Positions 25,073 through 63,466 of a DNA stretch of 64,000 nucleotides are shown here, in pieces. The stretch comes from a virus: the IMG/VR virus record IMGVR_UViG_3300037067_022550; one strand, written 5' to 3'. The notes under the pieces were generated by a model. It worked only from the letters and a program-made list of their open reading frames with translations, did not search any database and was not told where the DNA came from. A program made the position numbers and the translations under genes. Each line of letters begins with the position of its first letter. Position 1 is the stretch's first letter.

Positions 25073-25101
25073 AGGCTATCATATTTATTTAGGAAGTCAA
25101 G
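25073..25101 (-). promoter_or_regulatory. early-promoter family copy (CTTGACTT-16-TAGCCT)
   Basis: Minus-strand TTGACT at 25095-25100, 16-nt spacer, TAGCCT at 25073-25078. ATG 8 nt downstream. Confidence 0.6.
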
Positions 25102-25370
25102 TATTATCTGGAAATTATTTTAAAGAGATTTTCAACCTTGTTTGATGTTGGAGCATCTTATCCCGCTTACTATAACTCTATCTACAAGAACAAGGCGAGT
25201 TACTCTTGTATTTTTAGAGAGTGGATCTTTATCAATTCCTTGTTTGCATTTATTAGCAGTTCTGCGGAACTTATGCATATGGCCACAATAGCCCATGCCT
25301 TCTTCGAAAACAGAATAGAAACTTTTCATTTTGATTTCTTTCATTTTAATTGGCTGATATGTTCTACCTA

Positions 25371-25544
25371 TGTTTAAACTTCTATTCTCTGTAAGGTTTC
25401 TTTGGCGGTTTGAGTTACGCCTTCTATATAGGATGTTTCGTCAAAATAATCGCAACCTTCGTATCTGTTGGCAGGATCGTAAGGGTCTTTTGCTATTTCC
25501 TTCAAAGTATTAAGGGCTATTTCCAATTTTTCTTCTATTGTCAT
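25371..25544 (-). CDS. small hypothetical protein (57 aa, not in ORF track)
   Basis: Minus-strand ATG 25542-25544 downstream of the promoter at 25587. MTIEEKLEIALNTLKEIAKDPYDP... Confidence 0.35.
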
Positions 25545-25556
25545 AATTTTTGCTTT

Positions 25557-25594
25557 CTGAAAATAATCCTACCAGATTATATATTAAAGTCAAG
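25557..25594 (-). promoter_or_regulatory. early-promoter family copy
   Basis: Plus-strand aagtcaag at 25587-25594, which is CTTGACTT on the gene strand. TAGGAT -10-like hexamer 16 nt downstream. Confidence 0.55.
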
Positions 25595-25604
25595 GATTAT
25601 TTTA

Positions 25605-26051
25605 CTATTTTTTACAGAAGTGGCAAATTATTTGAATATCTTTGCCATCCCATTCTCTTTCTCCATGACAAACTGGACAATTTTCTGGAGGCATATTGGC
25701 TGTTTTTCTCAGGTAATTGATAACATCTGGATGCAAATTAATTAATTGGAACTTATGTTTGATTTTCTTTTCTTCAATAATCTTGCACAGCTTTTTGAAT
25801 ACATTGTCAGGTTCTGTTATACTCAGTTCGGCTGCAACGGTTTCATATTGCTTTTTGAAGTCGTGATGTTCTGCACTCCAATTATTGGCAATGTTTTTTG
25901 GTCTTATAGTAAAGCATTTTGGGTTATTGCCATAGCGTTTAATTTGGGGGTTATCTGGAAGAGAGATGATGTGAGATCTGAGTTGGGACATTAATTCACT
26001 CATTACTTGTGCGTGGTGTTCAATTTCTGTTTGTAGTTTTTGGGTATTCAT
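25605..26051 (-). CDS. hypothetical zinc-ribbon protein
   Basis: 148 aa. CPVCHG...CHFCKK at the C-terminus. Confidence 0.5.
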   Translation of the reverse strand: MNTQKLQTEIEHHAQVMSELMSQLRSHIISLPDNPQIKRYGNNPKCFTIRPKNIANNWSAEHHDFKKQYETVAAELSITEPDNVFKKLCKIIEEKKIKHKFQLINLHPDVINYLRKTANMPPENCPVCHGEREWDGKDIQIICHFCKK

Positions 26052-26182
26052 TTTGCTTCTTAATTTTATTTTCCACTATTTTTTCAAGGCGTTGGGGAGA
26101 AAGAGTGATTATAATCCGTCTTGCTTCTGCCATACTGGTGCAGATATTGAGGTTACACAGTTCTTTTGCTTTAGCATTGAGA

Positions 26183-26374
26183 TCAGTTGGTGTATTTGTT
26201 GATGAATTCATTGACAAATTTTTCTTCGTGTTTATCTATTTCTACAATTACAAATTTAAATTTCTTTCCACAACCGCAGGGACATGGGGAGTAGGGGTCA
26301 TCTGGTATTAGAGAAATCCACTTATCTATTGCCAAGCCTTGCAGGTTATGGGTTTCCTGATTCATGTGCAACAA
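26183..26374 (-). CDS. SEC-C-motif small protein
   Basis: CPCGCGKKFK metal-binding motif. 63 aa. Confidence 0.45.
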   Translation of the reverse strand: MLHMNQETHNLQGLAIDKWISLIPDDPYSPCPCGCGKKFKFVIVEIDKHEEKFVNEFINKYTN

Positions 26375-26530
26375 ATTATTTTTCGAGAAGTTGTTTGCGG
26401 AGACTTCTTACTTCTTTTTGAAGGCTGGAGATATTGATGGCGAATCTTATTTTTATGACCTTCTTTCTTATCTCTGGGAACGGTCAAGCCAGCGACCATC
26501 AATGTTATTTATCCCTTTTTTCCTTTAAGA

Positions 26531-26568
26531 TATGCATAAAGAATAACAGATTGTATGTATATGTCAAG
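26531..26568 (-). promoter_or_regulatory. early-promoter family copy
   Basis: Plus-strand atgtcaag at 26561-26568 with conserved flanks. Confidence 0.5.
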
Positions 26569-26577
26569 TATTAAATA

Positions 26578-26820
26578 TTAATTTCCATAAAGCCATGAGA
26601 AAGAAGATGTTTTGCGTTCTTTTAAAACAATTGCTTCATATTGCCGTAGAACTTCCAATGTTTCGGAAATGGTAAGATATTCCATAGAGCCAGACAATTC
26701 AATTCTTGGTTCTCTTTGGGGATGCCACATGACGTAGCCTATTGGTTTACCGTCTCTGGTAATTTCCCTTGAATGTTGATCCATTGTAAGGTTTAAATTA
26801 ATCATTTTATTGAATTCCAT
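26578..26820 (-). CDS. hypothetical protein
   Basis: 80-aa ORF. Confidence 0.45.
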   Translation of the reverse strand: MEFNKMINLNLTMDQHSREITRDGKPIGYVMWHPQREPRIELSGSMEYLTISETLEVLRQYEAIVLKERKTSSFSWLYGN

Positions 26821-27179
26821 ACTGGGTCATAATTGTTCTTGTTTTCTTTTTCCTTGTTCTTAAGTTCATAGGCAGCGCACATAAACAGGACACGAAGAAC
26901 ATAGAACACTCCTGTTACAATAGCTCCATGCCATACAAGGAAACCCATTACTAATAGATCAAAGAACAAATAGAAACTTTGACAAAATGAACTTTTGGTC
27001 ATTAGCTTTTGTGTTGCTGGGTGTAAAAGGAATGGTGAAAATACAATTTGAATCCATACTATGCACAGGGCTATGTTTTTTGCCCCCTTTATTTCACCGA
27101 CATAACCTAACCACAACATGATTGCAAGCAAGATATTCCAGAAAATAAATTGAAACCATTTTTTTATTTTATTATTCAT
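26802..27179 (-). CDS. hypothetical membrane protein
   Basis: 125 aa with 3-4 hydrophobic helices. Confidence 0.5.
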   Translation of the reverse strand: MNNKIKKWFQFIFWNILLAIMLWLGYVGEIKGAKNIALCIVWIQIVFSPFLLHPATQKLMTKSSFCQSFYLFFDLLVMGFLVWHGAIVTGVFYVLRVLFMCAAYELKNKEKENKNNYDPVWNSIK

Positions 27180-27202
27180 TGAATTTCCTTATTATTTGTG
27201 AT

Positions 27203-27240
27203 TTGTTTTAAAGAGTAGCAAATTATTTTATAAAGTCAAG
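27203..27240 (-). promoter_or_regulatory. early-promoter family copy
   Basis: aagtcaag at 27233-27240 followed by tattatt. Upstream element agcaaattatttta shared with the copy at 32187. Confidence 0.55.
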
Positions 27241-27255
27241 TATTATTAAAAAAAA

Positions 27256-27543
27256 TTATGGAGCTAATACAACATCTTCAAAGGGTTTCTTTTGTTCACT
27301 TATATCTTTGTATTCTTCAAATGGGATTATTCCAGCTATACAGGCTTCAAAATTAAGGACATTGAGAAAATACCAAGATGCCCATTCAGCATTATTTTTC
27401 ATATGGAGGTGTTTGATTTGCTGAATGTCTTTGGGGAGAGTGAATTTCTTAAAGTAGTAGCCGTTGAAATTGCTCTTTATGCAAAGGGCAACATAGGTTT
27501 CGGAAGGGGAAACTACTTTGCTTGAATCATTAACTAATGACAT
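27256..27543 (-). CDS. hypothetical protein
   Basis: 95-aa ORF. Confidence 0.45.
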   Translation of the reverse strand: MSLVNDSSKVVSPSETYVALCIKSNFNGYYFKKFTLPKDIQQIKHLHMKNNAEWASWYFLNVLNFEACIAGIIPFEEYKDISEQKKPFEDVVLAP

Positions 27544-27569
27544 TGTTTATTTCCTATTAGTTGATTAAT

Positions 27570-27607
27570 TTGATAATAAATCTAACAAATTATGTGAAAA
27601 AGTCAAG
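27570..27607 (-). promoter_or_regulatory. early-promoter family copy
   Basis: aagtcaag at 27600-27607. Confidence 0.55.
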
Positions 27608-27621
27608 TGTTATTTTAAGAA

Positions 27622-27927
27622 TTATATATAATAAGGCTCAATTTGATCCTTAAATTCTTGGCTCCATATTCTTGGAGTAGTAAATATCATCATTGACTTC
27701 ATACAAAAGGTATAATATGCAATCTCATTACCTTCTTTGTTGAAGAAATAGACATGAACAGAGCCATTTTTTTCTTGTTGTTTTGTATACCAATTATGAG
27801 TATATATTGGCAAAACTCCTATACTTTCTACTTTAAATCCCATTTGTTCTAGGATGTCTTTTGCTTCTCCGACAGTTTCGATTTCTGTTAAAAGGGGCTG
27901 TCCGTCTGATGTTTTGTTATATTTCAA
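27622..27927 (-). CDS. hypothetical protein
   Basis: 101-aa ORF. Confidence 0.5.
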   Translation of the reverse strand: MKYNKTSDGQPLLTEIETVGEAKDILEQMGFKVESIGVLPIYTHNWYTKQQEKNGSVHVYFFNKEGNEIAYYTFCMKSMMIFTTPRIWSQEFKDQIEPYYI

Positions 27928-27960
27928 GGTATAATCCCTTATATTTTGTTTATTCTTTTC

Positions 27961-27998
27961 TGAAAATAAGTATGGAACAAAGTTATGAAAAAGTCAAG
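27961..27998 (-). promoter_or_regulatory. early-promoter family copy
   Basis: aagtcaag at 27991-27998. Confidence 0.55.
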
Positions 27999-28052
27999 GA
28001 TTAATTTGCTATTTTTTAAAGGATTGATGGGGGATTTGCTTTGGCATTAAGA

Positions 28053-28322
28053 TTAGATATTCATTGTAATCTTCTTGAGTTCTTTTTTTACAGTATTTAG
28101 GGTTTCAATATTAGTAAACAACTCATGTTCAAATGTTCTATTACGGGCTTGTAGCTTTTCAATTTTGGCCTTGGCTCCAAAAGATCCACAAGTTTTTATT
28201 TGGTATAATTTGTCATTGTTATGCCTTATCATATTGTGGAAATGTTGTATGTCATCAACCAGAGCTTTTGCTTCTTTTTTCAGTTCATGGATTATTTTTA
28301 AGATATTTTGGTTTGGGCTCAT
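28053..28322 (-). CDS. hypothetical coiled-coil protein
   Basis: 89-aa ORF. Confidence 0.45.
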   Translation of the reverse strand: MSPNQNILKIIHELKKEAKALVDDIQHFHNMIRHNNDKLYQIKTCGSFGAKAKIEKLQARNRTFEHELFTNIETLNTVKKELKKITMNI

Positions 28323-28547
28323 TTTAATTATTCTTTTTTGATGAAGATATTACAATAAAATTAATAGTATTTATGGATTAAATGTAAATTCTCTTACAAT
28401 TCCCTTTATACATTTAATGAACATTTTTGGTTTTTTGGTAATGCAGATTAGATGGAGGGCAATGCGTCCAGAATGACTTGAAGACAATTTTATTTGGGTT
28501 TCATTACTCATTGAATTTCTCCATTAAATTGTTTCATATCTCTTCCT

Positions 28548-28585
28548 TCTGAAATTAATATAACAGATTTTATAAATATGTCAAG
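28548..28585 (-). promoter_or_regulatory. early-promoter family copy
   Basis: atgtcaag at 28578-28585. Upstream block similar to the 60032 copy. Confidence 0.5.
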
Positions 28586-29288
28586 AAAAAAATAAAAATG
28601 ATGACATTAAGTTTGTTTTATAATTGGAAGTTTTTGAGTTCTTGACAAAATATGGGAGTGGTTAAGTAGGTGGACTGTTCTGAAAAGGCAATGGAAGACT
28701 GGAAGATCATTTCTATATGATCTTGATTTGTCATCTCATTGTACTAAGTTATTGTAAATAAACTACTTATAAAAATATTGATGCCATCCGTTCCAAACGT
28801 TACCTAGCTTCTTGGATCCACGTGATCTTTTTTAGAACTTTTGCTTAAAAATGGCACTCCTGATTTTATTCATTTTATTAAGGAATTCATTACTTTTTAT
28901 GAAAAATACATTCTTAAGTGGCTTCTAATGCTTTATCTCAGTTCCAGCAGCTCATCTCTGATCCTTGGAGTCACGTGTAGAAAAACAGTCTTCATCTCTT
29001 TTGCTATTCATTACCATGGCATAAACATTCCAAGCTATGTTTCTTTTACAGATAGTTATGCGTCTGTAAAAGGCTATTAGGGTATTACTGCCAATTAGAG
29101 ATAGCAAATGGTTGATGAAGTTGATTGGACGGATTGGATGATGACTTTTAAAGAAAAATAAATATCAGTGCTATTATTACAAAGTTGTAGATCCCCATCG
29201 TGAAAAAAAGCACTAGGACACACAAAAGATCACCAGGAACACATCAAAACGTTTTTATGGAACTTTTTTGCACTGATAATGTTTTGTA

Positions 29289-29875: not shown

Positions 29876-30009
29876 AATACTATCTCCTTACTGTTGGTTT
29901 GCGGGGTTTTTCCCCAATTGATTTATGAGAACATGCTATCAGATTTTATTTAAATGTCAATCATTATTTGTGACTATTTTTTCACCTCCTTCTTTTGGTT
30001 TTTTCTTTC

Positions 30010-30047
30010 TGATAAGAAGGCTACTATAATTACTGTGGAAAGTCAAG
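30010..30047 (-). promoter_or_regulatory. early-promoter family copy
   Basis: aagtcaag at 30040-30047. Gene strand reads TTGACTttccacagtaattatagTAGCCTtCTTATCAGAAAG. Confidence 0.6.
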
Positions 30048-30579: not shown

Positions 30580-30580
30580 T

Positions 30581-32156: not shown

Positions 32157-32194
32157 CTGATAAGCAATATAGCAAATTATAAAAATAAGTCAAG
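32157..32194 (-). promoter_or_regulatory. early-promoter family copy
   Basis: aagtcaag at 32187-32194. Gene strand reads TTGACTtatttttataatttgcTATATTgCTTATCAGAAAG. Confidence 0.6.
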
Positions 32195-32752: not shown

Positions 32753-32828
32753 TTTTATTCTAAAATTCTTTTTTATTTTGCCTTCTTCATTCCGAATTCT
32801 CCTTACTATTTCAAATAAAACAGATAAG

Positions 32829-33032
32829 TCAACAATAAAATGTTAATGCACCGTAAATTGTTTTTGTTATAAACCATTCTTTATTAACAGGAGATTCTTT
32901 TCTAATAACAGCTTGACTTAGAAACTTATCAATTCTTTTTTGGGCGGCTTTGCTAAGGGCAAATTCGCTTAGAATTTTTTTGGGGGATCTTTTGTTTTTT
33001 TCTTTGGGCATAGGTTCTCTTGTATATTTCAC
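32829..33032 (-). CDS. hypothetical basic protein
   Basis: 67-aa ORF. Confidence 0.4.
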   Translation of the reverse strand: MKYTREPMPKEKNKRSPKKILSEFALSKAAQKRIDKFLSQAVIRKESPVNKEWFITKTIYGALTFYC

Positions 33033-34160: not shown

Positions 34161-34401
34161 ATTTCCTTTTAATAAAAAAATACAATGAGATTAATGTTCC
34201 TACAATTACTGGGGACAGGATAAACCACCATGACCAGCTAATTTGATGTGAAATTTTTAAAACAATAAGAGAGAATATTAAAAGACCGAATATTCCAGGG
34301 GGAAAAGTAATTTCAAAAGTTTTTTTATTTTTAACAGTAAAGTTATATTTAAAAATGTTTTTCATTGTTATAATGCTATCAAAATAATTGTGATATGTCA
34401 A
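34159..34401 (-). CDS. small membrane protein (WSWW family)
   Basis: Paralog of 32510..32752. Confidence 0.45.
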   Translation of the reverse strand: MTYHNYFDSIITMKNIFKYNFTVKNKKTFEITFPPGIFGLLIFSLIVLKISHQISWSWWFILSPVIVGTLISLYFFIKRK

Positions 34402-37320: not shown

Positions 37321-37358
37321 TATGTAAATAGAGTAACATAAACATGAAAGAAGTCAAT
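37321..37358 (-). promoter_or_regulatory. early-promoter family copy (variant TTGACT...aagtcaat)
   Basis: aagtcaat at 37351-37358. Confidence 0.45.
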
Positions 37359-37888: not shown

Positions 37889-38140
37889 TTATTTACGAGG
37901 GCAATTGTCAGGATCATTAGCACAACAAACACCTTGTTTGCTAACATGGCAACATCCACTACATTTGCCCATATTTATTTCACAAGGAAGTTTATTTTTG
38001 GGGGGACGTTTTGTCTTTATCTTCTTTTCTGGTTGATTTAACAGAATATTTTTATTAACAATTGAAAGTTTCATCAATTTTCCCCTTGCTTTTTTATTTC
38101 TAAACAAAGATATCATAATAAGAATTAAAGTCAATAACAA
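37889..38140 (-). CDS. Cys-rich small protein
   Basis: GKCSGCCHVSKQGVCCANDPDNCP. 83 aa. Confidence 0.45.
   Translation of the reverse strand: MLLTLILIMISLFRNKKARGKLMKLSIVNKNILLNQPEKKIKTKRPPKNKLPCEINMGKCSGCCHVSKQGVCCANDPDNCPRK
38098..38135 (-). promoter_or_regulatory. early-promoter family copy (variant)
   Basis: aagtcaat at 38128-38135. Overlaps the 5' end of 37889..38140 as called. Confidence 0.35.
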
Positions 38141-40468: not shown

Positions 40469-40506
40469 TGATAAAAAGGCTACTAAATTTACTATGGGAA
40501 GTCAAT
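40469..40506 (-). promoter_or_regulatory. early-promoter family copy
   Basis: aagtcaat at 40499-40506 with upstream tctgataaaaaggctactaaatttactatggg block, similar to the 30040 copy. Confidence 0.5.
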
Positions 40507-42142: not shown

Positions 42143-42463
42143 TTAGGCTTTTTCAACATAATAGCTAAAGGGATTTAAAAGGATAATTTCACGAATGCCG
42201 TATTCCAATATAGGACAAAAATTGTCTGATAATATTTCATTTGCTTTTTCTTGAGCAAATTTCAAGGCATCTGTGCTATTGGTAAAAACATTACATTTAC
42301 CAAAATAATTGACGACTTCTTTTGGATTACCATTAGGGTTATAATTATCAGGAGCATTTTTATCCCAGTATATGTTATCTATAGCCTGAGCATGAGCAAC
42401 CCTAAACTCAAATCCATCTTGAGAAGGAGTCTTTAAAATTGCTATACAATTATCTGCCGACAT
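42143..42463 (-). CDS. hypothetical protein
   Basis: 106-aa ORF. Confidence 0.5.
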   Translation of the reverse strand: MSADNCIAILKTPSQDGFEFRVAHAQAIDNIYWDKNAPDNYNPNGNPKEVVNYFGKCNVFTNSTDALKFAQEKANEILSDNFCPILEYGIREIILLNPFSYYVEKA

Positions 42464-43247
42464 AGTTAACCCCTTCCATTAAATGTCGTTTGCCGTTAAT
42501 TATATTAGATATGGCACTCCCATCCATTTTAAATTTTTTTCCTAATTGTTTATGAGTATATTGACCACTTTTGTACATTTTTATTATTTCTTTGGCTTGT
42601 TCGTCTGAAATTTTAGATCCAGGCCCTTTTTCGCCCCACATATATCGTCCGTTTTTTCTTTCATTTTCATAGATGTTGTTCCACCATTTATAAAAATCTT
42701 CATCATTTAAATTATTTACTTTTTGGTATTCTTGACTAGCTTTTTCTGGAGTATCATAGTAACCCACATGATAAGATTTATTGTATCTGGAAATACTGGC
42801 TTTCCATTTCTGTTTTCTTTTGTAAAAGCATACCCCTTTATATCCAGATTTGTTTGTGCAAATTATTAAATTATTATTTCTATGAGCTTGTTTAATTTTT
42901 TCTTTTGTTTCTGTTGGTAATGAACTTCTATCTACTTTATCTAATATATTATAACTCTTGTTTTTAATTCCTACTCCAACAGCATCTATCATTTTTTGTT
43001 CAGTTGTTTTAGATTCTATAGTATTACAAATGCAAATTATTTCAACTTTAAAAGCATTTTCTCCATATTTGTTCCAATCGTTTTGCAATATCCAAGAATG
43101 ATGTTTTTTATTTTTTAAATTACAAATATGAGTTTGAAGCCTTTTAAATATCCCTTGTTCCCCAGCACTACCATAATAAACAAACCCATTAATTTTATTG
43201 ATTATTCTATAAACACCAGGTTTTTTTGGCAAAGATGAAATATCCAT
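42450..43247 (-). CDS. GIY-YIG homing endonuclease
   Basis: GVYRIINKINGFVYYGSA plus R...H...N catalytic spacing. C-terminal basic DNA-binding tail. Confidence 0.8.
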   Translation of the reverse strand: MDISSLPKKPGVYRIINKINGFVYYGSAGEQGIFKRLQTHICNLKNKKHHSWILQNDWNKYGENAFKVEIICICNTIESKTTEQKMIDAVGVGIKNKSYNILDKVDRSSLPTETKEKIKQAHRNNNLIICTNKSGYKGVCFYKRKQKWKASISRYNKSYHVGYYDTPEKASQEYQKVNNLNDEDFYKWWNNIYENERKNGRYMWGEKGPGSKISDEQAKEIIKMYKSGQYTHKQLGKKFKMDGSAISNIINGKRHLMEGVNYVGR

Positions 43248-43595: not shown

Positions 43596-43633
43596 TTAGA
43601 AAAAGAGTACCATAAGGTAGTATAAAAGTCAAG
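43596..43633 (-). promoter_or_regulatory. early-promoter family copy
   Basis: aagtcaag at 43626-43633. Confidence 0.5.
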
Positions 43634-44726: not shown

Positions 44727-44907
44727 TATTATTTTTGGTCAATCTCAGGTTTTGTTCTAGAATTTGTCCTGATTTCAACACAACTAACTCTCATTTGTTA
44801 ATTGCGTCAAAGACGGTATTCAATTCTCTATTATATTATAAGGAGAAGACCAGCAAAGTTATAGAACATACCAACCGTCAAAGACTAACCAACCAATCTT
44901 TCCTTTT

Positions 44908-44945
44908 GAAGTAAGAAGAATAGCAAAAACAAATAGAAAGTCAAG
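44908..44945 (-). promoter_or_regulatory. early-promoter family copy driving an ORF-less roughly 200-nt segment
   Basis: aagtcaag at 44938-44945. No ORF longer than 25 aa between 44727 and 44937 on the minus strand. Confidence 0.5.
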
Positions 44946-45393
44946 CATTAATTAAAAAAATAATGTTCACAGCAGAGTGGGGTGCCATGAACTATTCAAT
45001 ATTTTCCCACCATCAGATAAGTTTTCGTTATCTCATCAACGCCTGTTATTTTTTGTGAATAACAAGAAACGCCAATTATAGCAAACCACTGCTTGCTAAG
45101 GTCGGTTTCCCCAGCCGACTCCTTGATAGTCCATAGTCTCTTTCGCATTGACCTATCTGCTTGTTCTCTCGCAGACGACTATCTCCTCCATACACCATAG
45201 CCTAATTGCCGTAATAAATAGGGCACATCAAGCCATAAACCAGATTAGCAACATTTTCCAGGGGTGGGTTGTTGCAATCTCAAAGCAAGCCCCTACCAAC
45301 AGCCTCCATTACAGAGGCAATGTCATAAGAACCTCCATTTAATAAATATAGTTCATCCTTTGAAAGTAATATTTATACAATAAAAAAAATCAA
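44946..45393 (-). ncRNA. candidate promoter-driven non-coding RNA (about 450 nt, GC-richer than the surroundings)
   Basis: Family promoter at 45394 followed by about 450 nt without an ORF on the gene strand. Local GC around 45%. Hairpins such as GGTCGG...CCGACC. Confidence 0.3.
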
Positions 45394-45401
45394 ATGTCAA
45401 G
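45364..45401 (-). promoter_or_regulatory. early-promoter family copy
   Basis: atgtcaag at 45394-45401. Confidence 0.5.
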
Positions 45402-46353: not shown

Positions 46354-46391
46354 TTTCATAAGAACTATAGCATGATTGAAATTAAAGTCAA
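46354..46391 (-). promoter_or_regulatory. early-promoter family copy
   Basis: aagtcaat at 46384-46391. Upstream block cctttcataagaactatagcat. Confidence 0.5.
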
Positions 46392-47225: not shown

Positions 47226-47309
47226 GAAATTTCCCCTTTTATGATAAGAACATTAATTTTCCAGATCAATATACATTTGACCAAGATTGCGAATTTTCTT
47301 GAGCCATTT

Positions 47310-47347
47310 CTGATAAGTACCTTCTGTTGTGCCAATTAAATGTCAAG
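47310..47347 (-). promoter_or_regulatory. early-promoter family copy (plus a degenerate tandem copy near 47240-47280)
   Basis: atgtcaag at 47340-47347. CTTATCAGAAATGG at 23 nt downstream on the gene strand. Confidence 0.55.
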
Positions 47348-47349
47348 TA

Positions 47350-47613
47350 TTATTTTAAGTTACGAGCTTCACAAACTTTTGCAATGCTTTCGTGTTCCAT
47401 TCCAAAATAAACAGCATTAATTCCATGTCTCATGGCAAAATTATATTCATAGATTTCTCTGAGCCAATTCCTTAGTTTCAGGCATTCATTATCTGTTAAA
47501 GAATCTACAGCACAAGTTTTATAACGATTGTGCAATTCCGCCATTTTCTTGCCATAATCTTTGTCCATGATAATTTCCTTCTTATTAATAACTATGCTAT
47601 ATTTAAAAATCAA
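47350..47613 (-). CDS. hypothetical protein
   Basis: 87-aa ORF. Confidence 0.5.
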   Translation of the reverse strand: MIFKYSIVINKKEIIMDKDYGKKMAELHNRYKTCAVDSLTDNECLKLRNWLREIYEYNFAMRHGINAVYFGMEHESIAKVCEARNLK

Positions 47614-48010: not shown

Positions 48011-48253
48011 TCATCTTTTCAAACAAGAAAAAATATTCAGAAGGTTTTTCTTAGTAGCAAACTTTAGCATTTTTTGTGCTTGTTCTAATGCTCTCTTTTT
48101 TGCCCGACCAGGTTTTTCCCAATTTTCATAATACCAACTACAATCTTCAATATGATCCCGTGAGCATGTTTTGAAGTGGATTATTTCTGCTATTTCTTGT
48201 TCATCTGTTAGTTTTTTTTTCATGTTTTCTCTTTTGATTAAGAACAATAACAT
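48011..48253 (-). CDS. hypothetical protein
   Basis: 80-aa ORF. Confidence 0.45.
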   Translation of the reverse strand: MLLFLIKRENMKKKLTDEQEIAEIIHFKTCSRDHIEDCSWYYENWEKPGRAKKRALEQAQKMLKFATKKNLLNIFSCLKR

Positions 48254-48272
48254 AAATTAATTTTAAGTCAAG
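48235..48272 (-). promoter_or_regulatory. early-promoter family copy
   Basis: aagtcaag at 48265-48272. Confidence 0.5.
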
Positions 48273-48848: not shown

Positions 48849-48886
48849 ATTTGAATTAATATAACAGATTTAATTTAAAAGTCAAG
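48849..48886 (-). promoter_or_regulatory. early-promoter family copy
   Basis: aagtcaag at 48879-48886. Confidence 0.5.
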
Positions 48887-49546: not shown

Positions 49547-49622
49547 TGGTGATCCGGGCGGGACTCGAACCCGCCACCACTTGATTAAAAGTCAAGTGCT
49601 CTACCAGATGAGCTACCGGATC
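49547..49622 (-). tRNA. tRNA-Lys (anticodon UUU), CCA encoded
   Basis: Cloverleaf read by eye. Acceptor GATCCGG/CCGGATC. D arm GCTC-ATCTGGTA-GAGC. Anticodon arm CTTGA-CTTTTAA-TCAAG. T arm GCGGG-TTCGAGT-CCCGC. Discriminator A plus CCA. Confidence 0.85.
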
Positions 49623-50846: not shown

Positions 50847-50884
50847 AAAGAAGTCTAATGTAACATATTAATTTTAAAAGTCAA
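50847..50884 (-). promoter_or_regulatory. early-promoter family copy
   Basis: aagtcaag at 50877-50884. Confidence 0.5.
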
Positions 50885-51189: not shown

Positions 51190-51225
51190 AACACTAATGC
51201 TATCATAATTAAAGTAAAAGTCAAT
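51190..51225 (-). promoter_or_regulatory. early-promoter family copy (variant)
   Basis: aagtcaat at 51218-51225. TAGCAT is 16 nt downstream on the gene strand. Confidence 0.45.
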
Positions 51226-52486: not shown

Positions 52487-53175
52487 CTTCACTACATTAC
52501 TTTCGTATTGTAGTCCGGACTTTCTCTTTACCATGCCTTTTTGGTTTAGGTATCCCCCGTTAAGTCTCTGCACCTTAAAAAATTCCACGCTTATTCTTTT
52601 TTTTCATGGCTTGGAAACAAACTTCTCTCTTTTCTTTGTCTTTGCTGTATTTGCAAAACTCCAAAAAAATCAATGCTTGCTCCCTTTTGACTTTTAAAAA
52701 AGGTAATATCTTTTCTATTAACTTCTGAGAATTACTCATAGACAACCTTATAGCATATGCCGTTTTTCGATTGCCTTTTGGTTTTTTCTCAAAAATTTTC
52801 GAAGTATTTTTAGTTATTATATTTAGCCACTCCATTATCGGTTTATAGGTGTTCCCAATATCTAAATAAGCAGAATATCCTATGTAAGAATTATAATTCT
52901 TAACTTGGTGCTTTCGCTTATTGATATGAATAGAACCTTCACCATCAATAAAACCGGCTATATATGCCAACTCTGTATCTGTTACTTTATTCACTTTAGT
53001 CTCCTTCCTAATAGAGACTATTTCATAGAGAAAATAACAGAAACCTTTTTTAATTTTCAAAGAACAATTGCAGAACTTTCCCTTGGCTCAGGATTAGCAT
53101 ACCTTTCGGTTTAGCTTTCCCTGAATTTGAGGGATTACATTATATAGGTTTCCCTACATACGCTCAATTTCTTTT
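52487..53175 (-). other. group I intron (tRNA-Leu(UAA) intron family, IC3-like) with a homing-endonuclease ORF in a peripheral loop
   Basis: Matches the Anabaena/plastid tRNA-Leu intron as recalled from memory. 5' part AAUUGAGC...CUCAAAUUCAGGGAAA...AAUCCUGAGCCAAG. 3' part AAGGUGCAGAGACU.AACGGGGGAUACCUAAAC...GGUAAAGAGAAAGUCC...GAAA-tetraloop hairpin...UGAAG(omegaG). Confidence 0.75.
52575..53060 (-). CDS. LAGLIDADG homing endonuclease (single-motif, about 160 aa) encoded within the tRNA-Leu intron
   Basis: TELAYIAGFIDGEGSIHI motif. No in-frame ATG at the 5' end (TTG at 53058-53060). Frame open from 53087. Confidence 0.8.
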   Translation of the reverse strand: MKIKKGFCYFLYEIVSIRKETKVNKVTDTELAYIAGFIDGEGSIHINKRKHQVKNYNSYIGYSAYLDIGNTYKPIMEWLNIITKNTSKIFEKKPKGNRKTAYAIRLSMSNSQKLIEKILPFLKVKREQALIFLEFCKYSKDKEKREVCFQAMKKKNKRGIF

Positions 53176-55531: not shown

Positions 55532-55569
55532 ACAGAATTAATCTATCATTATTTAATTTTAATGTCAAG
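55532..55569 (-). promoter_or_regulatory. early-promoter family copy
   Basis: atgtcaag at 55562-55569. No further copy until 52434, so it probably drives the operon 55504 to 53227 and the tRNA-Leu gene. Confidence 0.5.
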
Positions 55570-55853: not shown

Positions 55854-55891
55854 AACAAGACTAATATAGTAAATTTTATAGAAAAGTCAAC
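55854..55891 (-). promoter_or_regulatory. early-promoter family copy (variant)
   Basis: aagtcaac at 55884-55891. Confidence 0.4.
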
Positions 55892-56777: not shown

Positions 56778-57281
56778 TTAATTTCCTTGCAATTCGCTTA
56801 TTCCAACTACATTTTTACAAACTGGGCATTCATAGTGCTCACCTTTTTTGTTCATAACCACTATTTCTTTTTTAAGTTTGCAAGTGGGACAATAAATTTC
56901 TTCAAGCATACTTTGGACGGTCATTACATTTCTGGTAATATCCAAATAATCACTATAATTTCCATTATAATATTTTTGTTTATAAAAACGGTTAATAACA
57001 TTCATTAAGGCCAATACTGAAAAAGGTTCTTTTGATGCCACGAACCAATCAGTGGAATTAGCCCAGCGGTCAAAGTTTCTGGTAACTGCAATATCTGCTG
57101 TATAACGAAGAGCATCTCCTTGTCTTTCAAAAACTCTGATGGTAAATGTTTTGTTTTTAGCGATAAGCATAGAAACACTGCCATCGCTCCTTTCTTTAAT
57201 AGTAAATTTCAATTCAGAAAGATTTTGCTGAATGGTATCAATCCATTTTGTGGTTTTCATAATATTTCCTTTAATTAGCAA
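56778..57281 (-). CDS. hypothetical protein with C-terminal zinc ribbon
   Basis: CPTCKLKKE...CPVCKN. 167 aa. Confidence 0.5.
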   Translation of the reverse strand: MLIKGNIMKTTKWIDTIQQNLSELKFTIKERSDGSVSMLIAKNKTFTIRVFERQGDALRYTADIAVTRNFDRWANSTDWFVASKEPFSVLALMNVINRFYKQKYYNGNYSDYLDITRNVMTVQSMLEEIYCPTCKLKKEIVVMNKKGEHYECPVCKNVVGISELQGN

Positions 57282-57311
57282 CTATCGCAGATTTTTATTT
57301 TAAAATCAAGC

Positions 57312-58466: not shown

Positions 58467-58504
58467 TTTCAGTAAAAAATAACATAAATCAAATTAAAGT
58501 CAAG
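58467..58504 (-). promoter_or_regulatory. early-promoter family copy
   Basis: aagtcaag at 58497-58504. Confidence 0.5.
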
Positions 58505-58968
58505 CAATTTTTTAATGAACAGCAGCAATATTTAGCAAACAATTGTATGACATATTTTAATGCCATATTTTTTTGTAGGGCATTAATAAGCAGATATTTT
58601 CTAAATTGGAATTCAGACATTGTTTTCTTTTCTGAATTACACTTATCACAAGCTACCCTGAAGTTTTTGGGATCATTTCTTTTTTTGGTTATGCTTTTTG
58701 GAATGGCATGATCAATTGTAGCTTGAAGATGTTTTTTCTTGGTTTTTATTTTTAATCCAGTCTTACCGCAATAATCACAAATAAGAGTCCCACTTTTTGT
58801 AAGATGACTTTTAAGATATTTCTTCCTGGCTTTTATCCAAGCAGTTAAACATTCATCTGTTTGAAGATACAATTGTTTATTCAGCATCAACAAACTGGCA
58901 TAGGAGTGCGGATCGGGATCTTCCACAAAGAAAAGATTAGCAGTTCTTTCTCTGATATTTGTTTTCAT
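58489..58968 (-). CDS. HNH endonuclease
   Basis: CDYCGKTG...IDHAIP...N...CDKCNSEKK (HNH with zinc-binding Cys pairs). Confidence 0.7.
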   Translation of the reverse strand: MKTNIRERTANLFFVEDPDPHSYASLLMLNKQLYLQTDECLTAWIKARKKYLKSHLTKSGTLICDYCGKTGLKIKTKKKHLQATIDHAIPKSITKKRNDPKNFRVACDKCNSEKKTMSEFQFRKYLLINALQKNMALKYVIQLFAKYCCCSLKNCLTLI

Positions 58969-59299: not shown

Positions 59300-59311
59300 A
59301 GATACTCCTTT

Positions 59312-59587: not shown

Positions 59588-59596
59588 TAATTGATT

Positions 59597-59634
59597 TGTA
59601 ATATTAATGTATCAGATTTTTTTAAAAGGTCAAG
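59597..59634 (-). promoter_or_regulatory. early-promoter family copy (variant aggtcaag)
   Basis: aggtcaag at 59627-59634. Confidence 0.4.
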
Positions 59635-59643
59635 AAAACTTTT

Positions 59644-59937
59644 TTACCCCCATTGCAATACCTTGCCGCATTCTGAACAACACCAACCGTGGTCACCATC
59701 AGGAGTTTTCCAATAAACCATCTTGTCAACCATTTCGTTTTTCTCATGATTTAGTGAGCAACCTACAACAATTTGTACGGGTTTTGAAAGAGGAATAACT
59801 TCATCAATATATTTTTTGCCAAGAAGAGATGCAAACTGTTGTAATTGTTTTCCTGTTACTTTAATACCTATCATCATATCTTCAGGAATATCTCCGATCT
59901 TGGTTCTGCATGTAATGGGAACTTCAATTGTTTTCAT
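59644..59937 (-). CDS. hypothetical protein with C-terminal CxxC
   Basis: 97 aa. WCCSECGK. Confidence 0.45.
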   Translation of the reverse strand: MKTIEVPITCRTKIGDIPEDMMIGIKVTGKQLQQFASLLGKKYIDEVIPLSKPVQIVVGCSLNHEKNEMVDKMVYWKTPDGDHGWCCSECGKVLQWG

Positions 59938-60001
59938 GGTTGTTTTAATTTTATTTTTGCTAACATGGTATTTATTTCCAACATCATGTTTTTGTCTCTT
60001 T

Positions 60002-60039
60002 CTGATAGCAAATCTAACATATTAAATTTAAATGTCAAT
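60002..60039 (-). promoter_or_regulatory. early-promoter family copy
   Basis: atgtcaat at 60032-60039 with upstream ctttctgatagcaaatctaacatattaaat block. Confidence 0.5.
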
Positions 60040-60041
60040 TA

Positions 60042-60539
60042 CTATTCTATATAATAAAGACAGGGAATCATTTTAATCTTCATTGCTACATAATCATAAA
60101 ACCTACGCCAACCGTCTTGAATGATTGTAATGTCATTAGGATGATTTTTTTCATCCCACGCATTAAAGTCCAAGATAACTGGCCAAATTTCTTCACGATG
60201 TTGCCTGATTATTCTATTGTCATAAATATTTCTAAGACTACCGAATAAATCTAAGAATTCACTAGTAGGTATATTAACATAACCAAATTTTTCGTCTCCA
60301 TAACGCCGGGTATAAAAACCAATATAATCTTTAATAGCCAAAGAAACTAATTCTAAACAGTTGTTCTTATTATAATTTTTATAAGAAACAGTCTCGACTT
60401 TATCAGATATATTCCAAGCTTCCCCATCAACAGACATATAATAAGCCATTGCATATTTTGCTTCTCTGGGTAACTGACGAAACTTTAATACCTTGCCATT
60501 ATGTTTCTTAATTAAAGCAATCAATTGTTTGTTTTTCAT
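60042..60539 (-). CDS. hypothetical protein
   Basis: 165-aa ORF. Confidence 0.5.
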   Translation of the reverse strand: MKNKQLIALIKKHNGKVLKFRQLPREAKYAMAYYMSVDGEAWNISDKVETVSYKNYNKNNCLELVSLAIKDYIGFYTRRYGDEKFGYVNIPTSEFLDLFGSLRNIYDNRIIRQHREEIWPVILDFNAWDEKNHPNDITIIQDGWRRFYDYVAMKIKMIPCLYYIE

Positions 60540-60555
60540 GGTTGTTTTTTCCTTT

Positions 60556-60593
60556 CATAAGAATAATCTAACATATTAAATAACAAAGTCAAG
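60556..60593 (-). promoter_or_regulatory. early-promoter family copy
   Basis: aagtcaag at 60586-60593 with upstream cctttcataagaataatctaacatattaaat block. Confidence 0.55.
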
Positions 60594-60831
60594 TACTATT
60601 TTTATTACTTAAGTTTTATAAAGCTTAAGTTCTGGACCAACTTAAGTTTTGTTATTTATCCCAATATTTGCACTCGTCTTTAATTTTATTAATATTTTGA
60701 TTGGCAATAAAGACGAGTGCTTTCTTTTTATTTTGCTTAAGTTTTCTAATTTTTTGACTACTTGGTTTAAAACAAAAAAAACCGATAAGGAAAAAATCCC
60801 TACCAGTTTTTAAAAACAGTACCGTGCTTGT

Positions 60832-60869
60832 TACGAATATTTATAAAATATTTTTGCTAAAATGTCAAG
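60832..60869 (-). promoter_or_regulatory. early-promoter family copy
   Basis: atgtcaag at 60862-60869. Confidence 0.5.
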
Positions 60870-60876
60870 AATAAAA

Positions 60877-61209
60877 TTATCTTACTTTTGTAACCCAATT
60901 AGATCCAACCAAGAAAACATATTCTTTATAGCTAATTATAGTAGCTTCTTTAACTATTACAATATTATAATCACCATGATGTTCTTCTTTTATCTCAAAA
61001 ACATTAGAATTCATTTGAAGACAATCTTTGTTTTCCGAAATATTTCCTGTAGGATTTTCAGCAATTAAATTATTATTTTTATTGTAATTTATAGGATGAT
61101 TAGATGAAGAAAGTTTATTTGAAAAAAATAATTCTATTAATAATGCTCCCACAAGGCCAATAATTCCAAGGGCAATCATACATTCAATTATTGTAAATCC
61201 CTTTTTCAT
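60877..61209 (-). CDS. prepilin-type N-terminal methylation-motif protein
   Basis: MKKGFTIIECMIALGIIGLVGALLI. Confidence 0.6.
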   Translation of the reverse strand: MKKGFTIIECMIALGIIGLVGALLIELFFSNKLSSSNHPINYNKNNNLIAENPTGNISENKDCLQMNSNVFEIKEEHHGDYNIVIVKEATIISYKEYVFLVGSNWVTKVR

Positions 61210-61221
61210 AATTTTTCACTT

Positions 61222-61542
61222 TTATTGTATTTTAACTGCCCATCTATATCCGTCTACTATTATATTGGTTTTCCCAGATTGTAAATTTATTACTGTTATA
61301 ATCTGATAGGTTCTAAAACTATTTTCATATTCCTCAAATTCTATTTTAAAATTTTTATTTTCTATTTTAAAATTATTATCAACGGGTTCTTGATTTTCAA
61401 TAGGATTTTCAACCATCGCATTTTTTTGTTGTTCATTATATCTTTTGTGAGCTTTATTAAAAGAAGGTATAATTATGGCAGCTAACAAAATAATTATTAT
61501 TAGAACAATTACAATTTCAACTACTGTAAATCCTTTATTCAT
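61222..61542 (-). CDS. prepilin-type N-terminal methylation-motif protein
   Basis: MNKGFTVVEIVIVLIIIILLAAIIIP. Confidence 0.6.
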   Translation of the reverse strand: MNKGFTVVEIVIVLIIIILLAAIIIPSFNKAHKRYNEQQKNAMVENPIENQEPVDNNFKIENKNFKIEFEEYENSFRTYQIITVINLQSGKTNIIVDGYRWAVKIQ

Positions 61543-61549
61543 ATTTCTC

Positions 61550-61846
61550 CTATTTGATAAAGCTTTTTAAATGACATTCGTTTGTACAATCACCCTTGTG
61601 ACAAAGGGTGTATATAAGATAACCATAAGCAGTTCTACTATTACTTTCAATATATTCACACCCATTTATAACTACAATTTGATAAGGAGATGTTGGTTTA
61701 TTAGTTTTAATAGGAATTGGATTTTCTAAGCAAGTATTATCATTTTTAAGAGCTTTAATAAGTATTGGCCTTAATATTGCTGCTAAAGTAATAATCACAA
61801 AAACAACAACTAAAATCTCTACCAATGTAAAACCATTTTTTTTCAT
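61550..61846 (-). CDS. prepilin-type N-terminal methylation-motif protein
   Basis: MKKNGFTLVEILVVVFVIITLAAIL. Confidence 0.6.
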   Translation of the reverse strand: MKKNGFTLVEILVVVFVIITLAAILRPILIKALKNDNTCLENPIPIKTNKPTSPYQIVVINGCEYIESNSRTAYGYLIYTLCHKGDCTNECHLKSFIK

Positions 61847-62004
61847 AATTTACTCCTATTTATATTGACAAACAATTATTAACTTTATTTACGAGAATAA
61901 TAGCAAAATCATTGGTTGTTTTTCTATTATTAGGGAAACTAAAATAAATTAATGAAATTGCAGCAACAATTATGCCAATGACTGCTAGTGCAATTGTACA
62001 CTTA

Positions 62005-62241
62005 TCACTTTTTTTCATTACGTTTCTCTTTTTTAATTCTGTCATGTTCTCTGCAATGATCTCCGCAACAATAACCCCCATTATGTTTTGTTTTAATGTC
62101 ACAACCTGGCAACAAACATTTTCTCAATGGTTTTTGAACTACATAAGGTGTCATTGCTTTTATCAAGTTAGGGTCAGAAAAAAGACTTCCCAAACCCATG
62201 ATAGAAGCTGCCAACAGTAAGTCGTTATAATTTTTTTTCAT
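62005..62241 (-). CDS. Cys/His-rich small protein
   Basis: 78 aa. LPGCDIKTKHNGGYCCGDHCREH. The overlapping call 61860..62102 probably starts at its internal Met (about 61860..62018, small TM peptide). Confidence 0.4.
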   Translation of the reverse strand: MKKNYNDLLLAASIMGLGSLFSDPNLIKAMTPYVVQKPLRKCLLPGCDIKTKHNGGYCCGDHCREHDRIKKEKRNEKK

Positions 62242-62249
62242 AAATAAAA

Positions 62250-62327
62250 TGGTGGGAGATGAGGGATTTGAACCCCCGACCTTGGATTTATAAGACCCCT
62301 GCTCGTCACCAGCTGAGCTAATCTCCC
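62250..62327 (-). tRNA. tRNA with anticodon UAU (Ile-like, reads AUA), CCA encoded
   Basis: Acceptor GGGAGAU/AUCUCCC. D arm GCUC...GAGC. Anticodon loop CUUAUAA. Variable loop AGGUC. T arm GGGGG-UUCAAAU-CCCUC. A-CCA. One G.A mismatch at 27:43. Confidence 0.6.
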
Positions 62328-62396
62328 GTTTGGAAGGTCTGATTCAATGGGAACCCATAGGGGCATACTTAGCCCATTGCCAAGATCATAATTTTA

Positions 62397-62618
62397 TCAT
62401 TTATACATTACAACATAATTGCCAAATTCTTCTTCAAATACTTTTAAAACGTTATCATAATTACCACTAGTCATTCTTTTTTGAATGGTATTAAAATCTT
62501 TTCCGGTTTGTTTGGAAAGAGTACGAGCTACACCAATTAAATAAAAAGCATTACCTTGCAGCCCAGTAAGATCTATTTCTAAACGTTTTTCTTTCTTTTC
62601 AGATTTTGGCACGATCAT
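62397..62618 (-). CDS. hypothetical protein
   Basis: 73-aa ORF. Confidence 0.45.
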   Translation of the reverse strand: MIVPKSEKKEKRLEIDLTGLQGNAFYLIGVARTLSKQTGKDFNTIQKRMTSGNYDNVLKVFEEEFGNYVVMYK

Positions 62619-62866
62619 TTGATGTTATCCTTTTTGATCCCACTTCTTTCCAAGGCAAATAAAAGTTTTTCTTCTACATCTTCATTGGCTGGGTGGTTAA
62701 TGTCAATATTAAATTTTACACAAATCTTATCTTCAAGTTTGTCAAATCTTTTTTGATTTATAACCTTAATCTTTTTCTTTTTCAATTTCAAGATTTCTTT
62801 TGCAATTAAACAATCAAGTGCTAAAAAATCTATGGGGATAAAAGAGTATTGTTCCATTTCATTCAT
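62615..62866 (-). CDS. hypothetical protein
   Basis: 83-aa ORF. ATGA overlap with the downstream gene. Confidence 0.45.
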   Translation of the reverse strand: MNEMEQYSFIPIDFLALDCLIAKEILKLKKKKIKVINQKRFDKLEDKICVKFNIDINHPANEDVEEKLLFALERSGIKKDNIK

Positions 62867-62879
62867 ATGCCCCCATTAA

Positions 62880-63167
62880 TTAGGGTATTAGAGTAACTGA
62901 AGCCCCATCATACCATTCAGCAAGACAACCCTTGATATATTCACAAAACTCATTAGGCTCTCCTCCCCATTGATCACTTTCACATGAGATTGAAACTTTA
63001 TCAGAATAAGAGCGTAATCCTGCTCCAATTTCTCCTGGAAAATATATATCAAAAGATAGTTGATGTTTTTTTAATTGATCTATTTTAAATTTAAGACCAG
63101 CATTCTCAATCTGCAAACTTTCCATTGCTTTTCTCAAATCTTTTTTGGTTGCCCCATTAGCACTCAT
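62880..63167 (-). CDS. hypothetical protein
   Basis: 95-aa ORF. Confidence 0.45.
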   Translation of the reverse strand: MSANGATKKDLRKAMESLQIENAGLKFKIDQLKKHQLSFDIYFPGEIGAGLRSYSDKVSISCESDQWGGEPNEFCEYIKGCLAEWYDGASVTLIP

Positions 63168-63169
63168 GA

Positions 63170-63439
63170 TTACTCCAGAATATTAAATTCTTCTATAAAA
63201 TCTGCGTTAGATCTATAAACAGACTCACGATTGGTTAAGATTTTCCAAACATAATCTTCTGGAAGATCATCCAAATATTTCTGTCGAAAAATTTCTCTTG
63301 CTTCTGGACTATCCTTGAGAATTTTAATTACTTTAAATTTGGTCAATTCACTACTTGATAGAGGAGGAAAATCAACTCCATACCATTTTGGGCGACAAAA
63401 AACTTCATTCATACTATTATTCCTTTTCTTTAAATTCAA
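63170..63439 (-). CDS. hypothetical protein
   Basis: 89-aa ORF. Confidence 0.45.
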   Translation of the reverse strand: MNLKKRNNSMNEVFCRPKWYGVDFPPLSSSELTKFKVIKILKDSPEAREIFRQKYLDDLPEDYVWKILTNRESVYRSNADFIEEFNILE

Positions 63440-63466
63440 TGTAGCATAATTTAAAAATAAGTCAAT
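63429..63466 (-). promoter_or_regulatory. early-promoter family copy (variant)
   Basis: aagtcaat at 63459-63466. Confidence 0.45.

Follow-up and report, generated by a model that had tools for sequence, protein, structure and literature searches.

Predicted host-sigma promoters along one strand of a small-gene array in an uncultivated large phage

What transcribes a long run of small genes that point the same way in a virus with no close relative in GenBank? The question is raised by IMG/VR virus record IMGVR_UViG_3300037067_022550, a 64,000-nucleotide (nt) stretch of DNA that we analysed as a whole (the window). Its minus strand carries, at 24654-63439, an array of about 93 non-overlapping small leftward open reading frames (ORFs; median 87 amino acids (aa)), with only two credible plus-strand genes among them. 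A sequence-only reading of the window had proposed that this array is tiled by at least 34 near-identical sigma70-like promoters. We found a single family of about 33-35 promoter-like sites at 25073-63465, on the minus strand only. Taken together, the data make it likely that these sites are promoters read by the host primary-sigma (sigma70/sigmaA-type) RNA polymerase and that the array behind them is the early, probably host-takeover, region of a large virulent phage that is uncultivated.

The strand bias appeared in each type of count. Over the whole window, TTGACN-N16-18-TANNNT had 34 minus-strand and 3 plus-strand matches. Within the array (24601-64000), TTGAC-N17-19-TAnnnT gave 32 minus-strand matches against 1 on the plus strand, and a stricter pattern with an extended -10 (TTGACnT-N8-9-WWTnTGnTAnnnT) gave 23 against 0; a second-order Markov null model yielded a mean of 3.0 (maximum 10) for the looser pattern and a mean of 0.005 for the stricter one. 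A variable-gap position weight matrix (PWM) for this family, trained on 25 window sites, scored 34 minus-strand sites above 10 and 35 above 9, compared with fewer than one in shuffles. No plus-strand site in the window scored above 10, and positions 1-24600 held no family site, the top minus-strand score there being 6.9. The sites lie roughly 1.1 kb apart, all in direct orientation. Regular expressions, PWM and shuffle counts therefore bore out the proposal of a one-orientation, promoter-like family upstream of minus-strand ORFs, and the motif search over the window showed the two strands to be far from equal.

Other parts of the proposal had to be revised. The copies differ outside the consensus positions, so 'near-identical' is inaccurate, and recent amplification of copies was ruled out, as unusually similar site pairs in the window are only slightly above expectation (7 observed, 2.9 expected). 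The literal plus-strand 16-mer AWGTCAAGKATTATTT, said to recur at least 34 times, has only 3 exact copies and 8 at ≤1 mismatch; at ≤3 mismatches there are 24 matches where about 11 are expected. Each of the four plus-strand positions thought to use the same style (12189, 12269, 13077 and 23371) does have TTGACA or TTGACT and a plausible -10, but the family PWM gives them scores of only 1.3-8.8.

The family is also present in other phage DNA. An exact-pattern scan ('-35, TGn, -10, TATCAGAAA') of JGI and ENA metagenome contigs yielded 117 loci, cited below by L numbers. At least three PWM sites occur in 26 of the 117, and in each of these 26 all sites lie on a single strand; examples are L017 (14 sites in 12 kb), L010 (12 in 8.7 kb), and L055 and L082 (10 each). 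Many array loci encode homologues of the array proteins of the window, at 45-100% identity and in broadly similar order. The consensus of 121 sites from relatives that had not been selected by the search pattern agrees with the window consensus. Conserved core blocks of the relatives contain no family sites, as is the case for 1-24 kb of the window. In orthologous alignments the promoter, leader and coding sequence are conserved, and nothing is conserved upstream of about -45.

Which polymerase would read such sites? On the gene strand, information is confined to aaat..t.C TTGAC(T/A) T, about 8 free positions, aaT.TG. and TA...T. Written as a consensus, this is an A/T-rich tract, cTTGAC(T/A)T, a spacer of 16 nt (17 in a minority), T(A/C)TGn and TAnnnT. 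Of 31 window sites, 22 have TTGACT as the -35 hexamer and 7 have TTGACA (together 29/31); among 115 sites of relatives the numbers are 68 for TTGACT and 46 for TTGACA (together 114/115). The flanking bases, C before and T after, are near-fixed. Spacers of 16 and 17 nt number 25 and 6 in the window and 88 and 27 in relatives, and 18 nt never occurs. The spacing proposed at the outset is confirmed in both sets and, at about 80% 16 nt and 20% 17 nt, falls within the primary-sigma range of 17 +/- 1, while the sequence of the spacer is uninformative. In the 121 sites of relatives, the extended -10 TGn has T in 118 and G in 112 at the -15/-14 equivalents, and the -10 hexamer has T-12 in 119 and both A-11 and T-7 in all 121. 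The A-rich UP-like (upstream promoter-like) tract described earlier is present, but conservation is weak, at about 0.4-0.7 bit per position for the upstream 'AAAATAAT' tract. The conserved positions (-35 TTGACw, TGn, T-12, A-11 and T-7) coincide exactly with those that a primary sigma factor would contact.

The family members in the array are listed here on the basis of the family PWM score, with coordinates that span the -35 to the -10; members with special downstream regions are given where they are discussed.

63438-63465, minus: family promoter (-35 TTGACT, 16 nt, TGc TACATT); PWM 34.6; ATG 25 nt after the -10; the L017 orthologue keeps a site
60565-60592, minus: family promoter (TTGACT, 16, TGt TAGATT); PWM 38.0; ATG 25 nt after the -10
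60011-60038, minus: family promoter with CTATCAGAAAG start box at the fixed offset; PWM 33.6
59606-59633, minus: family promoter (TTGACC, 16, TGa TACATT); PWM 30.9; ATG 30 nt after the -10
58476-58503, minus: family promoter overlapping the stop of the HNH gene; PWM 29.0
57281-57309, minus: degenerate member (TTGATT, 17, TGc GATAGT); PWM 17.1; ATG 20 nt after the -10
55863-55890, minus: family promoter with leader type AGTCTTGTTT, also found in L010, L017 and L035; PWM 28.6
55540-55568, minus: family promoter (17-nt spacer); PWM 22.8
51197-51224, minus: family promoter within a longest-ORF call; PWM 26.3; internal start 51165
50857-50884, minus: family promoter with tRNA-Lys at the operon end; PWM 30.7
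48858-48885, minus: family promoter; PWM 28.8; the L092 and L017 orthologues keep a site
48244-48271, minus: family promoter; PWM 31.5
46364-46391, minus: family promoter; PWM 33.9; conserved in L092, L008 and L043
44698-44725, minus: family promoter; PWM 32.8; ATG 22 nt after the -10
43604-43632, minus: family promoter (17 nt); PWM 23.1
40477-40505, minus: family promoter (17 nt) with TTTATCAGAT start region; PWM 21.1
38107-38134, minus: family promoter; PWM 32.7
37330-37357, minus: family promoter; PWM 28.0; conserved in L122
34778-34805, minus: family promoter with CTATCAGAAAA box; PWM 37.0
34373-34401, minus: family promoter (17 nt), ATG 7 nt after the -10 (possible leaderless mRNA); PWM 22.8; conserved in L122
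33439-33466, minus: family promoter; PWM 36.2
32805-32832, minus: weak member (-10 AATAGT); PWM 11.5
32166-32193, minus: family promoter with CTTATCAGAAAG box; PWM 32.9
30018-30046, minus: family promoter (17 nt) with CTTATCAGAAAG box, in tandem with 29960; PWM 29.1
29933-29960, minus: family promoter (tandem P2); PWM 32.1
28557-28584, minus: family promoter; PWM 35.4
27969-27997, minus: weak member (-10 CATACT); PWM 15.0
27579-27606, minus: family promoter; PWM 38.5
27212-27239, minus: family promoter; PWM 29.9
25566-25593, minus: family promoter with TTTTCAGAAAG start region; PWM 33.5
25073-25100, minus: final family promoter of the array; PWM 31.3; ATG 8 nt after the -10

Several observations weigh against the assignment to the host primary-sigma polymerase. 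The interior of the -10 is non-consensus, TATAAT being found in 0 of 31 window sites and 5 of 115 sites of relatives. The 16-nt spacer is 1 nt below the optimum of 17, which is that of E. coli and Kayvirus. L161, a more distant relative that shares array proteins, has no family sites; the motif is therefore lineage-specific and belongs to a sub-clade. A scan of the region with a generic sigma70 consensus and for terminators gave no enrichment over shuffles, a comparison that is uninformative in DNA of 32% GC. Finally, the scores of the 25 window sites that trained the PWM are circular, which the regular-expression counts and the external loci are not.

The spacer preference, the -10 interior and the absence from L161 would also fit real promoters that serve a sigma70-family factor encoded by the phage or a host polymerase that a phage protein has remodelled; they would then form a middle or phage-specific class. 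The extra invariant bases around the -35 (C before, T after) and the plus-strand promoters at 12189, 13077 and 23371, which differ in detail, point the same way. Known promoters that depend on phage sigma factors or on appropriation lack or replace the -35, as in the T4 MotA box, SPO1 gp28 and the Kayvirus late promoters. In the array, a canonical -35 is kept in essentially all copies, and the motif has every primary-sigma element (a TTGACA-like -35, T-12/A-11/T-7, a spacer within range and the optional TGn). No sigma-like gene was detected among the window proteins scanned, most of the small ORFs being unclassifiable. We consider a phage-specific class improbable and the host primary-sigma enzyme the better candidate.

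The position of the sites relative to genes was examined in the array. From the end of the -10 to the next plausible start codon the median distance is 35 nt, and it is ≤60 nt for 26 of 35 sites; to a start preceded by a Shine-Dalgarno sequence (SD) the median is 26-29 nt. In nine cases the site falls within a 'longest ORF' call and the SD-ATG comes downstream of it, in support of the internal starts that had been suspected there; three sites overlap the last codons of the upstream gene. At 34373-34401 and 25073-25100 (minus), an ATG follows 7-8 nt after the -10 with no SD, which could give leaderless mRNAs. These positions bear on whether the motif might be a dispersed repeat that is no promoter at all (MITE- or REP-like (miniature inverted-repeat transposable element, repetitive extragenic palindrome), iterons or packaging signals), an idea that the many direct-orientation copies at a roughly regular spacing of about 1.1 kb would suggest. 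What is conserved amounts to two short blocks a fixed distance apart, the sequence between them being free; terminal and inverted repeats are absent, the copies stand 20-60 nt upstream of an SD-ATG on the gene strand, and the pattern persists in diverged relatives. On these grounds the dispersed repeat is hardly credible, and promoters are what the placement favours.

The array has few terminators (29339-29299, 43712-43675, 44992-44965 and 60811-60777), so most transcripts should read through several genes. Genes for tRNA-Lys (UUU; 49547-49622) and tRNA-Ile (UAU; 62250-62327) lie inside promoter units. Hardly any protein of the array has a Pfam or PHROG match; those that do are HNH, LAGLIDADG and GIY-YIG/AP2 endonucleases, a 'phage metallopeptidase', a metallophosphoesterase and a pilin-like protein. 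The layout is thus one of 35 sites in one orientation over about 93 small, mostly ORFan genes with phage markers. In the model that we propose, about 35 units would transcribe about 93 small ORFs, two tRNAs and a few non-coding segments, all in one direction, and the transcripts would be nested and polycistronic. Each unit would consist, in order, of an A/T-rich tract with C, the -35 with T, the spacer, the extended -10, TAnnnT, a T-rich discriminator, the start, a purine-rich 5' untranslated region (UTR), the SD and the ATG. The results support the view that these are sigma70-type promoters of a large-phage early region; recognition by the host holoenzyme and early timing are what we infer for them.

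What, then, is the conserved box that follows the -10? The sequence-only reading had treated CTTATCAG as an unexplained conserved element that could be a regulator or RNase site. We found that it is a minority variant of the discriminator and start region and no separate element present in all copies. On the minus strand CTTATCAG occurs 4 times and CTTATCAGAAA 3 times, and in each exact window copy TATCAG begins 4 nt after the -10. CAGAA, wherever it occurs, begins at offset 5-6, its C being +6 or +7 after the -10; 5 of 31 promoters of the window and 15 of 84 promoters of relatives have it in this register (about 16-18%). The 84 are unique promoters from relatives, not selected by the search pattern, and they served for the start-region counts that follow. 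A T-rich, G-poor stretch from +1 to +6 after the -10 is common to the promoters: +3 is T in 65/84, +6 is T or C in 78/84, and +7 is a purine in 57/84, with A/G-rich sequence onward up to the SD.

A holoenzyme with primary sigma should begin transcription 6-9 nt downstream of the -10, on a purine that follows a pyrimidine. The pyrimidine-to-purine switch 6-8 nt after the -10 is accordingly the predicted transcription start, the exact nucleotide being a prediction as well. Because the switch falls at the expected start, CTTATCAG is best read, from its sequence context, as discriminator, start site and initial transcribed sequence and not as a separate operator. CTTATCAGAAAG would be the commonest version of these three and would merge into the SD, leaving a predicted 5' UTR of about 15-25 nt that is purine-rich and little more than the SD. 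A separate regulatory role of the box is not required by the data.

Such a role would make the CTTATCAGAAAG box a cis-element in its own right: a phage shut-off repressor might use it as operator, or an RNase or translational regulator might cleave or bind early mRNAs there. T4 RegB targets SD sequences of early mRNAs, and the box abuts the SD. Its register is fixed in every exact window copy, and it recurs at offset 5-6 in the relatives' promoters mentioned above and in L005. Yet only about one promoter in six has it; the others share no more than the T-rich run, the pyrimidine/purine step and the purine-rich pattern that discriminator, start and SD would give, and the box is without dyad symmetry. 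We regard a separate element as unlikely and keep to the start-region interpretation.

The comparison with relatives also revealed turnover of promoters. Placement is partly conserved: a site lies ≤250 nt upstream in 20 of 42 orthologues of promoter-proximal genes, compared with 40 of 133 others. Gene order in the window and in L122 differs at a promoter-bearing gap. In relatives, non-orthologous cassettes can share nearly the whole spacer and leader, and this near-identity hints at cassette spread. One copy in the window has decayed. At 47340-47355 the upstream tract, TTGACA and CTTATCAGAAA are kept, the -10 is lost, and an insertion of about 70 nt lies between two CTTATCA repeats.

47306-47355, minus: decayed copy (UP-like tract, TTGACA and CTTATCAGAAA, no TAnnnT), split by the ~70-nt insertion; an intact promoter is at the orthologous position in 4/4 relatives

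Partial conservation of placement, near-identical spacers and leaders in non-orthologous cassettes, the split copy at 47347 with its flanking CTTATCA repeats and the changed gene order in L122 could all be explained if promoter-leader cassettes of about 60 bp also acted as dispersed direct repeats for the gain, loss and shuffling of small genes. This would resemble the promoter-early stem-loop (PeSL) cassettes of T4-type phages, which are repeated early-promoter cassettes in ORFan-rich hyperplastic regions (PMC4122927, PMC2839356). The variation of promoter positions between relatives is a feature in common with PeSLs, but no terminator stem-loop is fused to the promoter here. The minimum free energy of the upstream 60 nt averages -5.4 kcal/mol compared with -6.3 kcal/mol in controls, none of 35 upstream folds is below the 5th percentile of the controls, and a hairpin upstream of the promoter is present at only one site, 44944. 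Identity with PeSLs was ruled out on this point. The window copies have moreover diverged outside the consensus, as the count of similar pairs showed. A recombinational role in addition to promoter function is possible, and we give it a minor chance.

A further possibility joins the two ideas. Promoter, start box and ribosome-binding site may form a self-contained cassette of about 70 bp (16-nt spacer, TCTTATCAGAAAGG in fixed register, SD at the 5' end of the mRNA) that propagates across positions and genomes of the huge-phage clade, with the start box also serving as a handle for a phage shut-off factor (a repressor or a RegB-like RNase). The unit would then be more than an optimised host promoter. 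We hold this composite to be a long shot, and the plain promoter interpretation is retained below.

Are all promoters followed by genes? Two copies had been said to drive ORF-less segments, and such segments were indeed found downstream of the -35 hexamers at 44944, 45400 and 60868.

60840-60868, minus: weaker variant (TTGACA, 17 nt, TATAAA) with a ~60-nt ORF-less transcript; PWM 18.4; terminator 60811-60777 follows
45372-45400, minus: variant promoter (TTGACA, 17, tTGtATAAAt) before a ~400-nt non-coding segment; PWM 9.9; invariant in 4 relatives
44960-45366, minus: candidate structured non-coding RNA, ending at terminator 44992-44965; judged by conservation, GC and fold
44917-44944, minus: family promoter with an ORF-less target of ~175 nt; PWM 35.7
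44735-44910, minus: ORF-less conserved transcript region; 93% nt identity to L092; also in L008 and L043

The site at 44944 leads into about 175 nt without an ORF, in which the differences from L092 include indels and show no codon periodicity; the genes that neighbour 44735-44910 are 72-80% identical to L092, with a third-position excess. The variant promoter at 45400, with its TATAAA -10, precedes the terminator-ended segment of about 400 nt at 44960-45366, which has a GC content of 0.42 and a fold z-score of -2.35. This segment is 87% identical to L092 and is conserved also in L035, L065 and L049. Since it is conserved with indels and without codon periodicity, it is a candidate structured phage non-coding RNA. 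RNAalifold gave no clear covariation signal for it, with four sequences only, and the ORF-less segments had no match in Rfam at gathering thresholds or at permissive E-values. At 60868 the site is followed by about 55 nt and then a terminator hairpin with a z-score of -5.1 (60777-60833, minus); this transcript could be a small RNA or an attenuator.

An element of about 70 nt adjoins another family promoter on its downstream side.

26540-26567, minus: family promoter upstream of the ultra-conserved ~70-nt element; PWM 29.5
26434-26503, minus: ultra-conserved ~70-nt element (possible pseudoknotted RNA), recognised by cross-phage conservation

It is found at 26434-26503 (minus) in the window, at 12343-12403 in L055 and at 1290-1361 in L161. 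Its core has 3 variable positions in 57 nt between phages with about 50% aa identity, and the closing stem changes compensatorily (ATTGATGG/CCATCAAT versus CTATTGG/CCAATAG). A pseudoknot (CUGG/CCAG and UGACC/GGUCA) is possible. The element lies about 20 nt upstream of an SD-ATG in two relatives, in different gene contexts, and it had no Rfam match at E ≤5.

How does the array compare with early regions of known phages? The early promoters of T4 are 'uber' UP/-35/TGn/-10 promoters (PMC2988021). As in T4, the array has many copies of a host-sigma70-type promoter with UP-like, -35, TGn and -10 parts and extra positions beyond the host consensus, all directed the same way into small early genes, most of them unknown (PMC2988021). 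It differs from T4 in its 16-nt spacer, in the C/T flanks of TTGAC and in a TAnnnT that is never TATAAT in the window; the lineage is unrelated and uncultivated, and nothing points to Alt-like modification or to middle promoters of the MotA type. In Kayvirus, 58 early promoters combine TTGACW, TRTGN and TATANT, transcription begins about 6 nt past the -10, and the PWM sites were validated by RNA-seq (PMC7698491). Dozens of sigma70-type early promoters per genome, a TTGACW-type -35, TGN and, here as a prediction, the position of the start are shared with Kayvirus (phage K-like, Herelleviridae), whereas the Kayvirus spacer is 17 bp with TATANT and the promoters here have 16 nt and T(A/C)TGn.

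In the SPO1 host-takeover module and the T5 pre-early and early regions, clusters of small early genes stand behind a strong host-sigma promoter and a strong ribosome-binding site, and T5 promoters show conserved initial transcribed regions. The array has no sequence relationship to either phage and is much larger, at about 39 kb and about 93 ORFs. SPO1 early transcription is described as sigmaA-dependent (PMC13401047) and host sigma70 RNA polymerase as serving all temporal classes of T5 (PMC7472727). The design is one already known from T4, T5, SPO1 and Kayvirus, and the lineage is new.

The list above offers a first regulatory map of a predicted early region for an uncultivated huge-phage lineage. 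The array argues for dependence of this lineage on the polymerase of the host when infection begins, in contrast to those jumbo phages that carry in one of their own. Because one pattern scan yielded 26 early-gene arrays, the motif is a practical handle for metagenomes; it may be used to collect ORFan candidates for host takeover and anti-defence and to deduce the promoter preferences of the host. For annotation, gene starts are corrected for at least nine ORFs, and promoter-driven non-coding segments are flagged that may be new phage RNAs. We see the main value of the work in this annotation and in the motif handle for an uncultivated huge-phage clade.

Which phage, and which host, does the array belong to? 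A near-identity DNA search with 20 kb against GenBank phages gave no match, and there is no close relative among GenBank phages. The closest phage matches for the anaerobic ribonucleotide reductase NrdD and for a 563-aa fusion of a substrate-binding protein with OmpA (14323-16014) are only 25-30% identical; for the binding protein, the nearest ones come from megaphage contigs and from Bacillus phage G, at 25%. Scans of IMG/VR seeded with three window proteins found no relatives, and exact-protein look-ups with the kinase/response-regulator hybrid described below and with P0121 returned no record. In metagenomes, a 50-kb JGI contig carries proteins 89-94% identical to those of the window, a clade of contigs is syntenic with window 1-7 kb at 59-79% aa identity, and more distant members are on a 96-kb contig, a 470-kb contig and an IMG/VR viral contig. 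Together with the tRNAs, three homing endonucleases and the phage metallopeptidase, contigs of up to 470 kb suggest that the phage is large, probably huge (>200 kb), and virulent.

The left part of the window encodes a split NrdD, a histidine-kinase/response-regulator hybrid, an ABC transporter with an OmpA-fused binding protein, and AAA ATPases. The hybrid (5126-6520, plus) is conserved in the clade at 59-89% identity and matches PHROG 20458 (E 4e-105). The transporter, with its binding protein fused to an OmpA-like domain, occupies 14323-17929 (plus). This unusual cargo hints at a diderm host. NrdD is split into two ORFs at 8178-9179 and 9409-10929 (minus), about 230 nt apart and with no Rfam intron match; at the syntenic position, relatives have a class I/II-type ribonucleotide reductase, in some cases with an intein and LAGLIDADG.

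The promoter-plus-box pattern was also searched in 185,579 species genomes, which gave 32 single matches in unrelated taxa, at chance level. L141 and L130 (DAONFW010000004.1 and DAONFW010000003.1), both from one Candidatus Paceibacterota metagenome-assembled genome, each match the pattern; only one of the two contigs has 3 family-grade sites, on one strand, and neither shares proteins with the window. These matches may be due to chance or may hint at bacteria that use this promoter style. Within the array itself, the homing endonucleases are free-standing (all minus): GIY-YIG with AP2 at 42450-43247, LAGLIDADG at 52575-53060 and HNH at 58489-58968. One group of relatives has the GIY-YIG gene at 77% identity, and others lack it.

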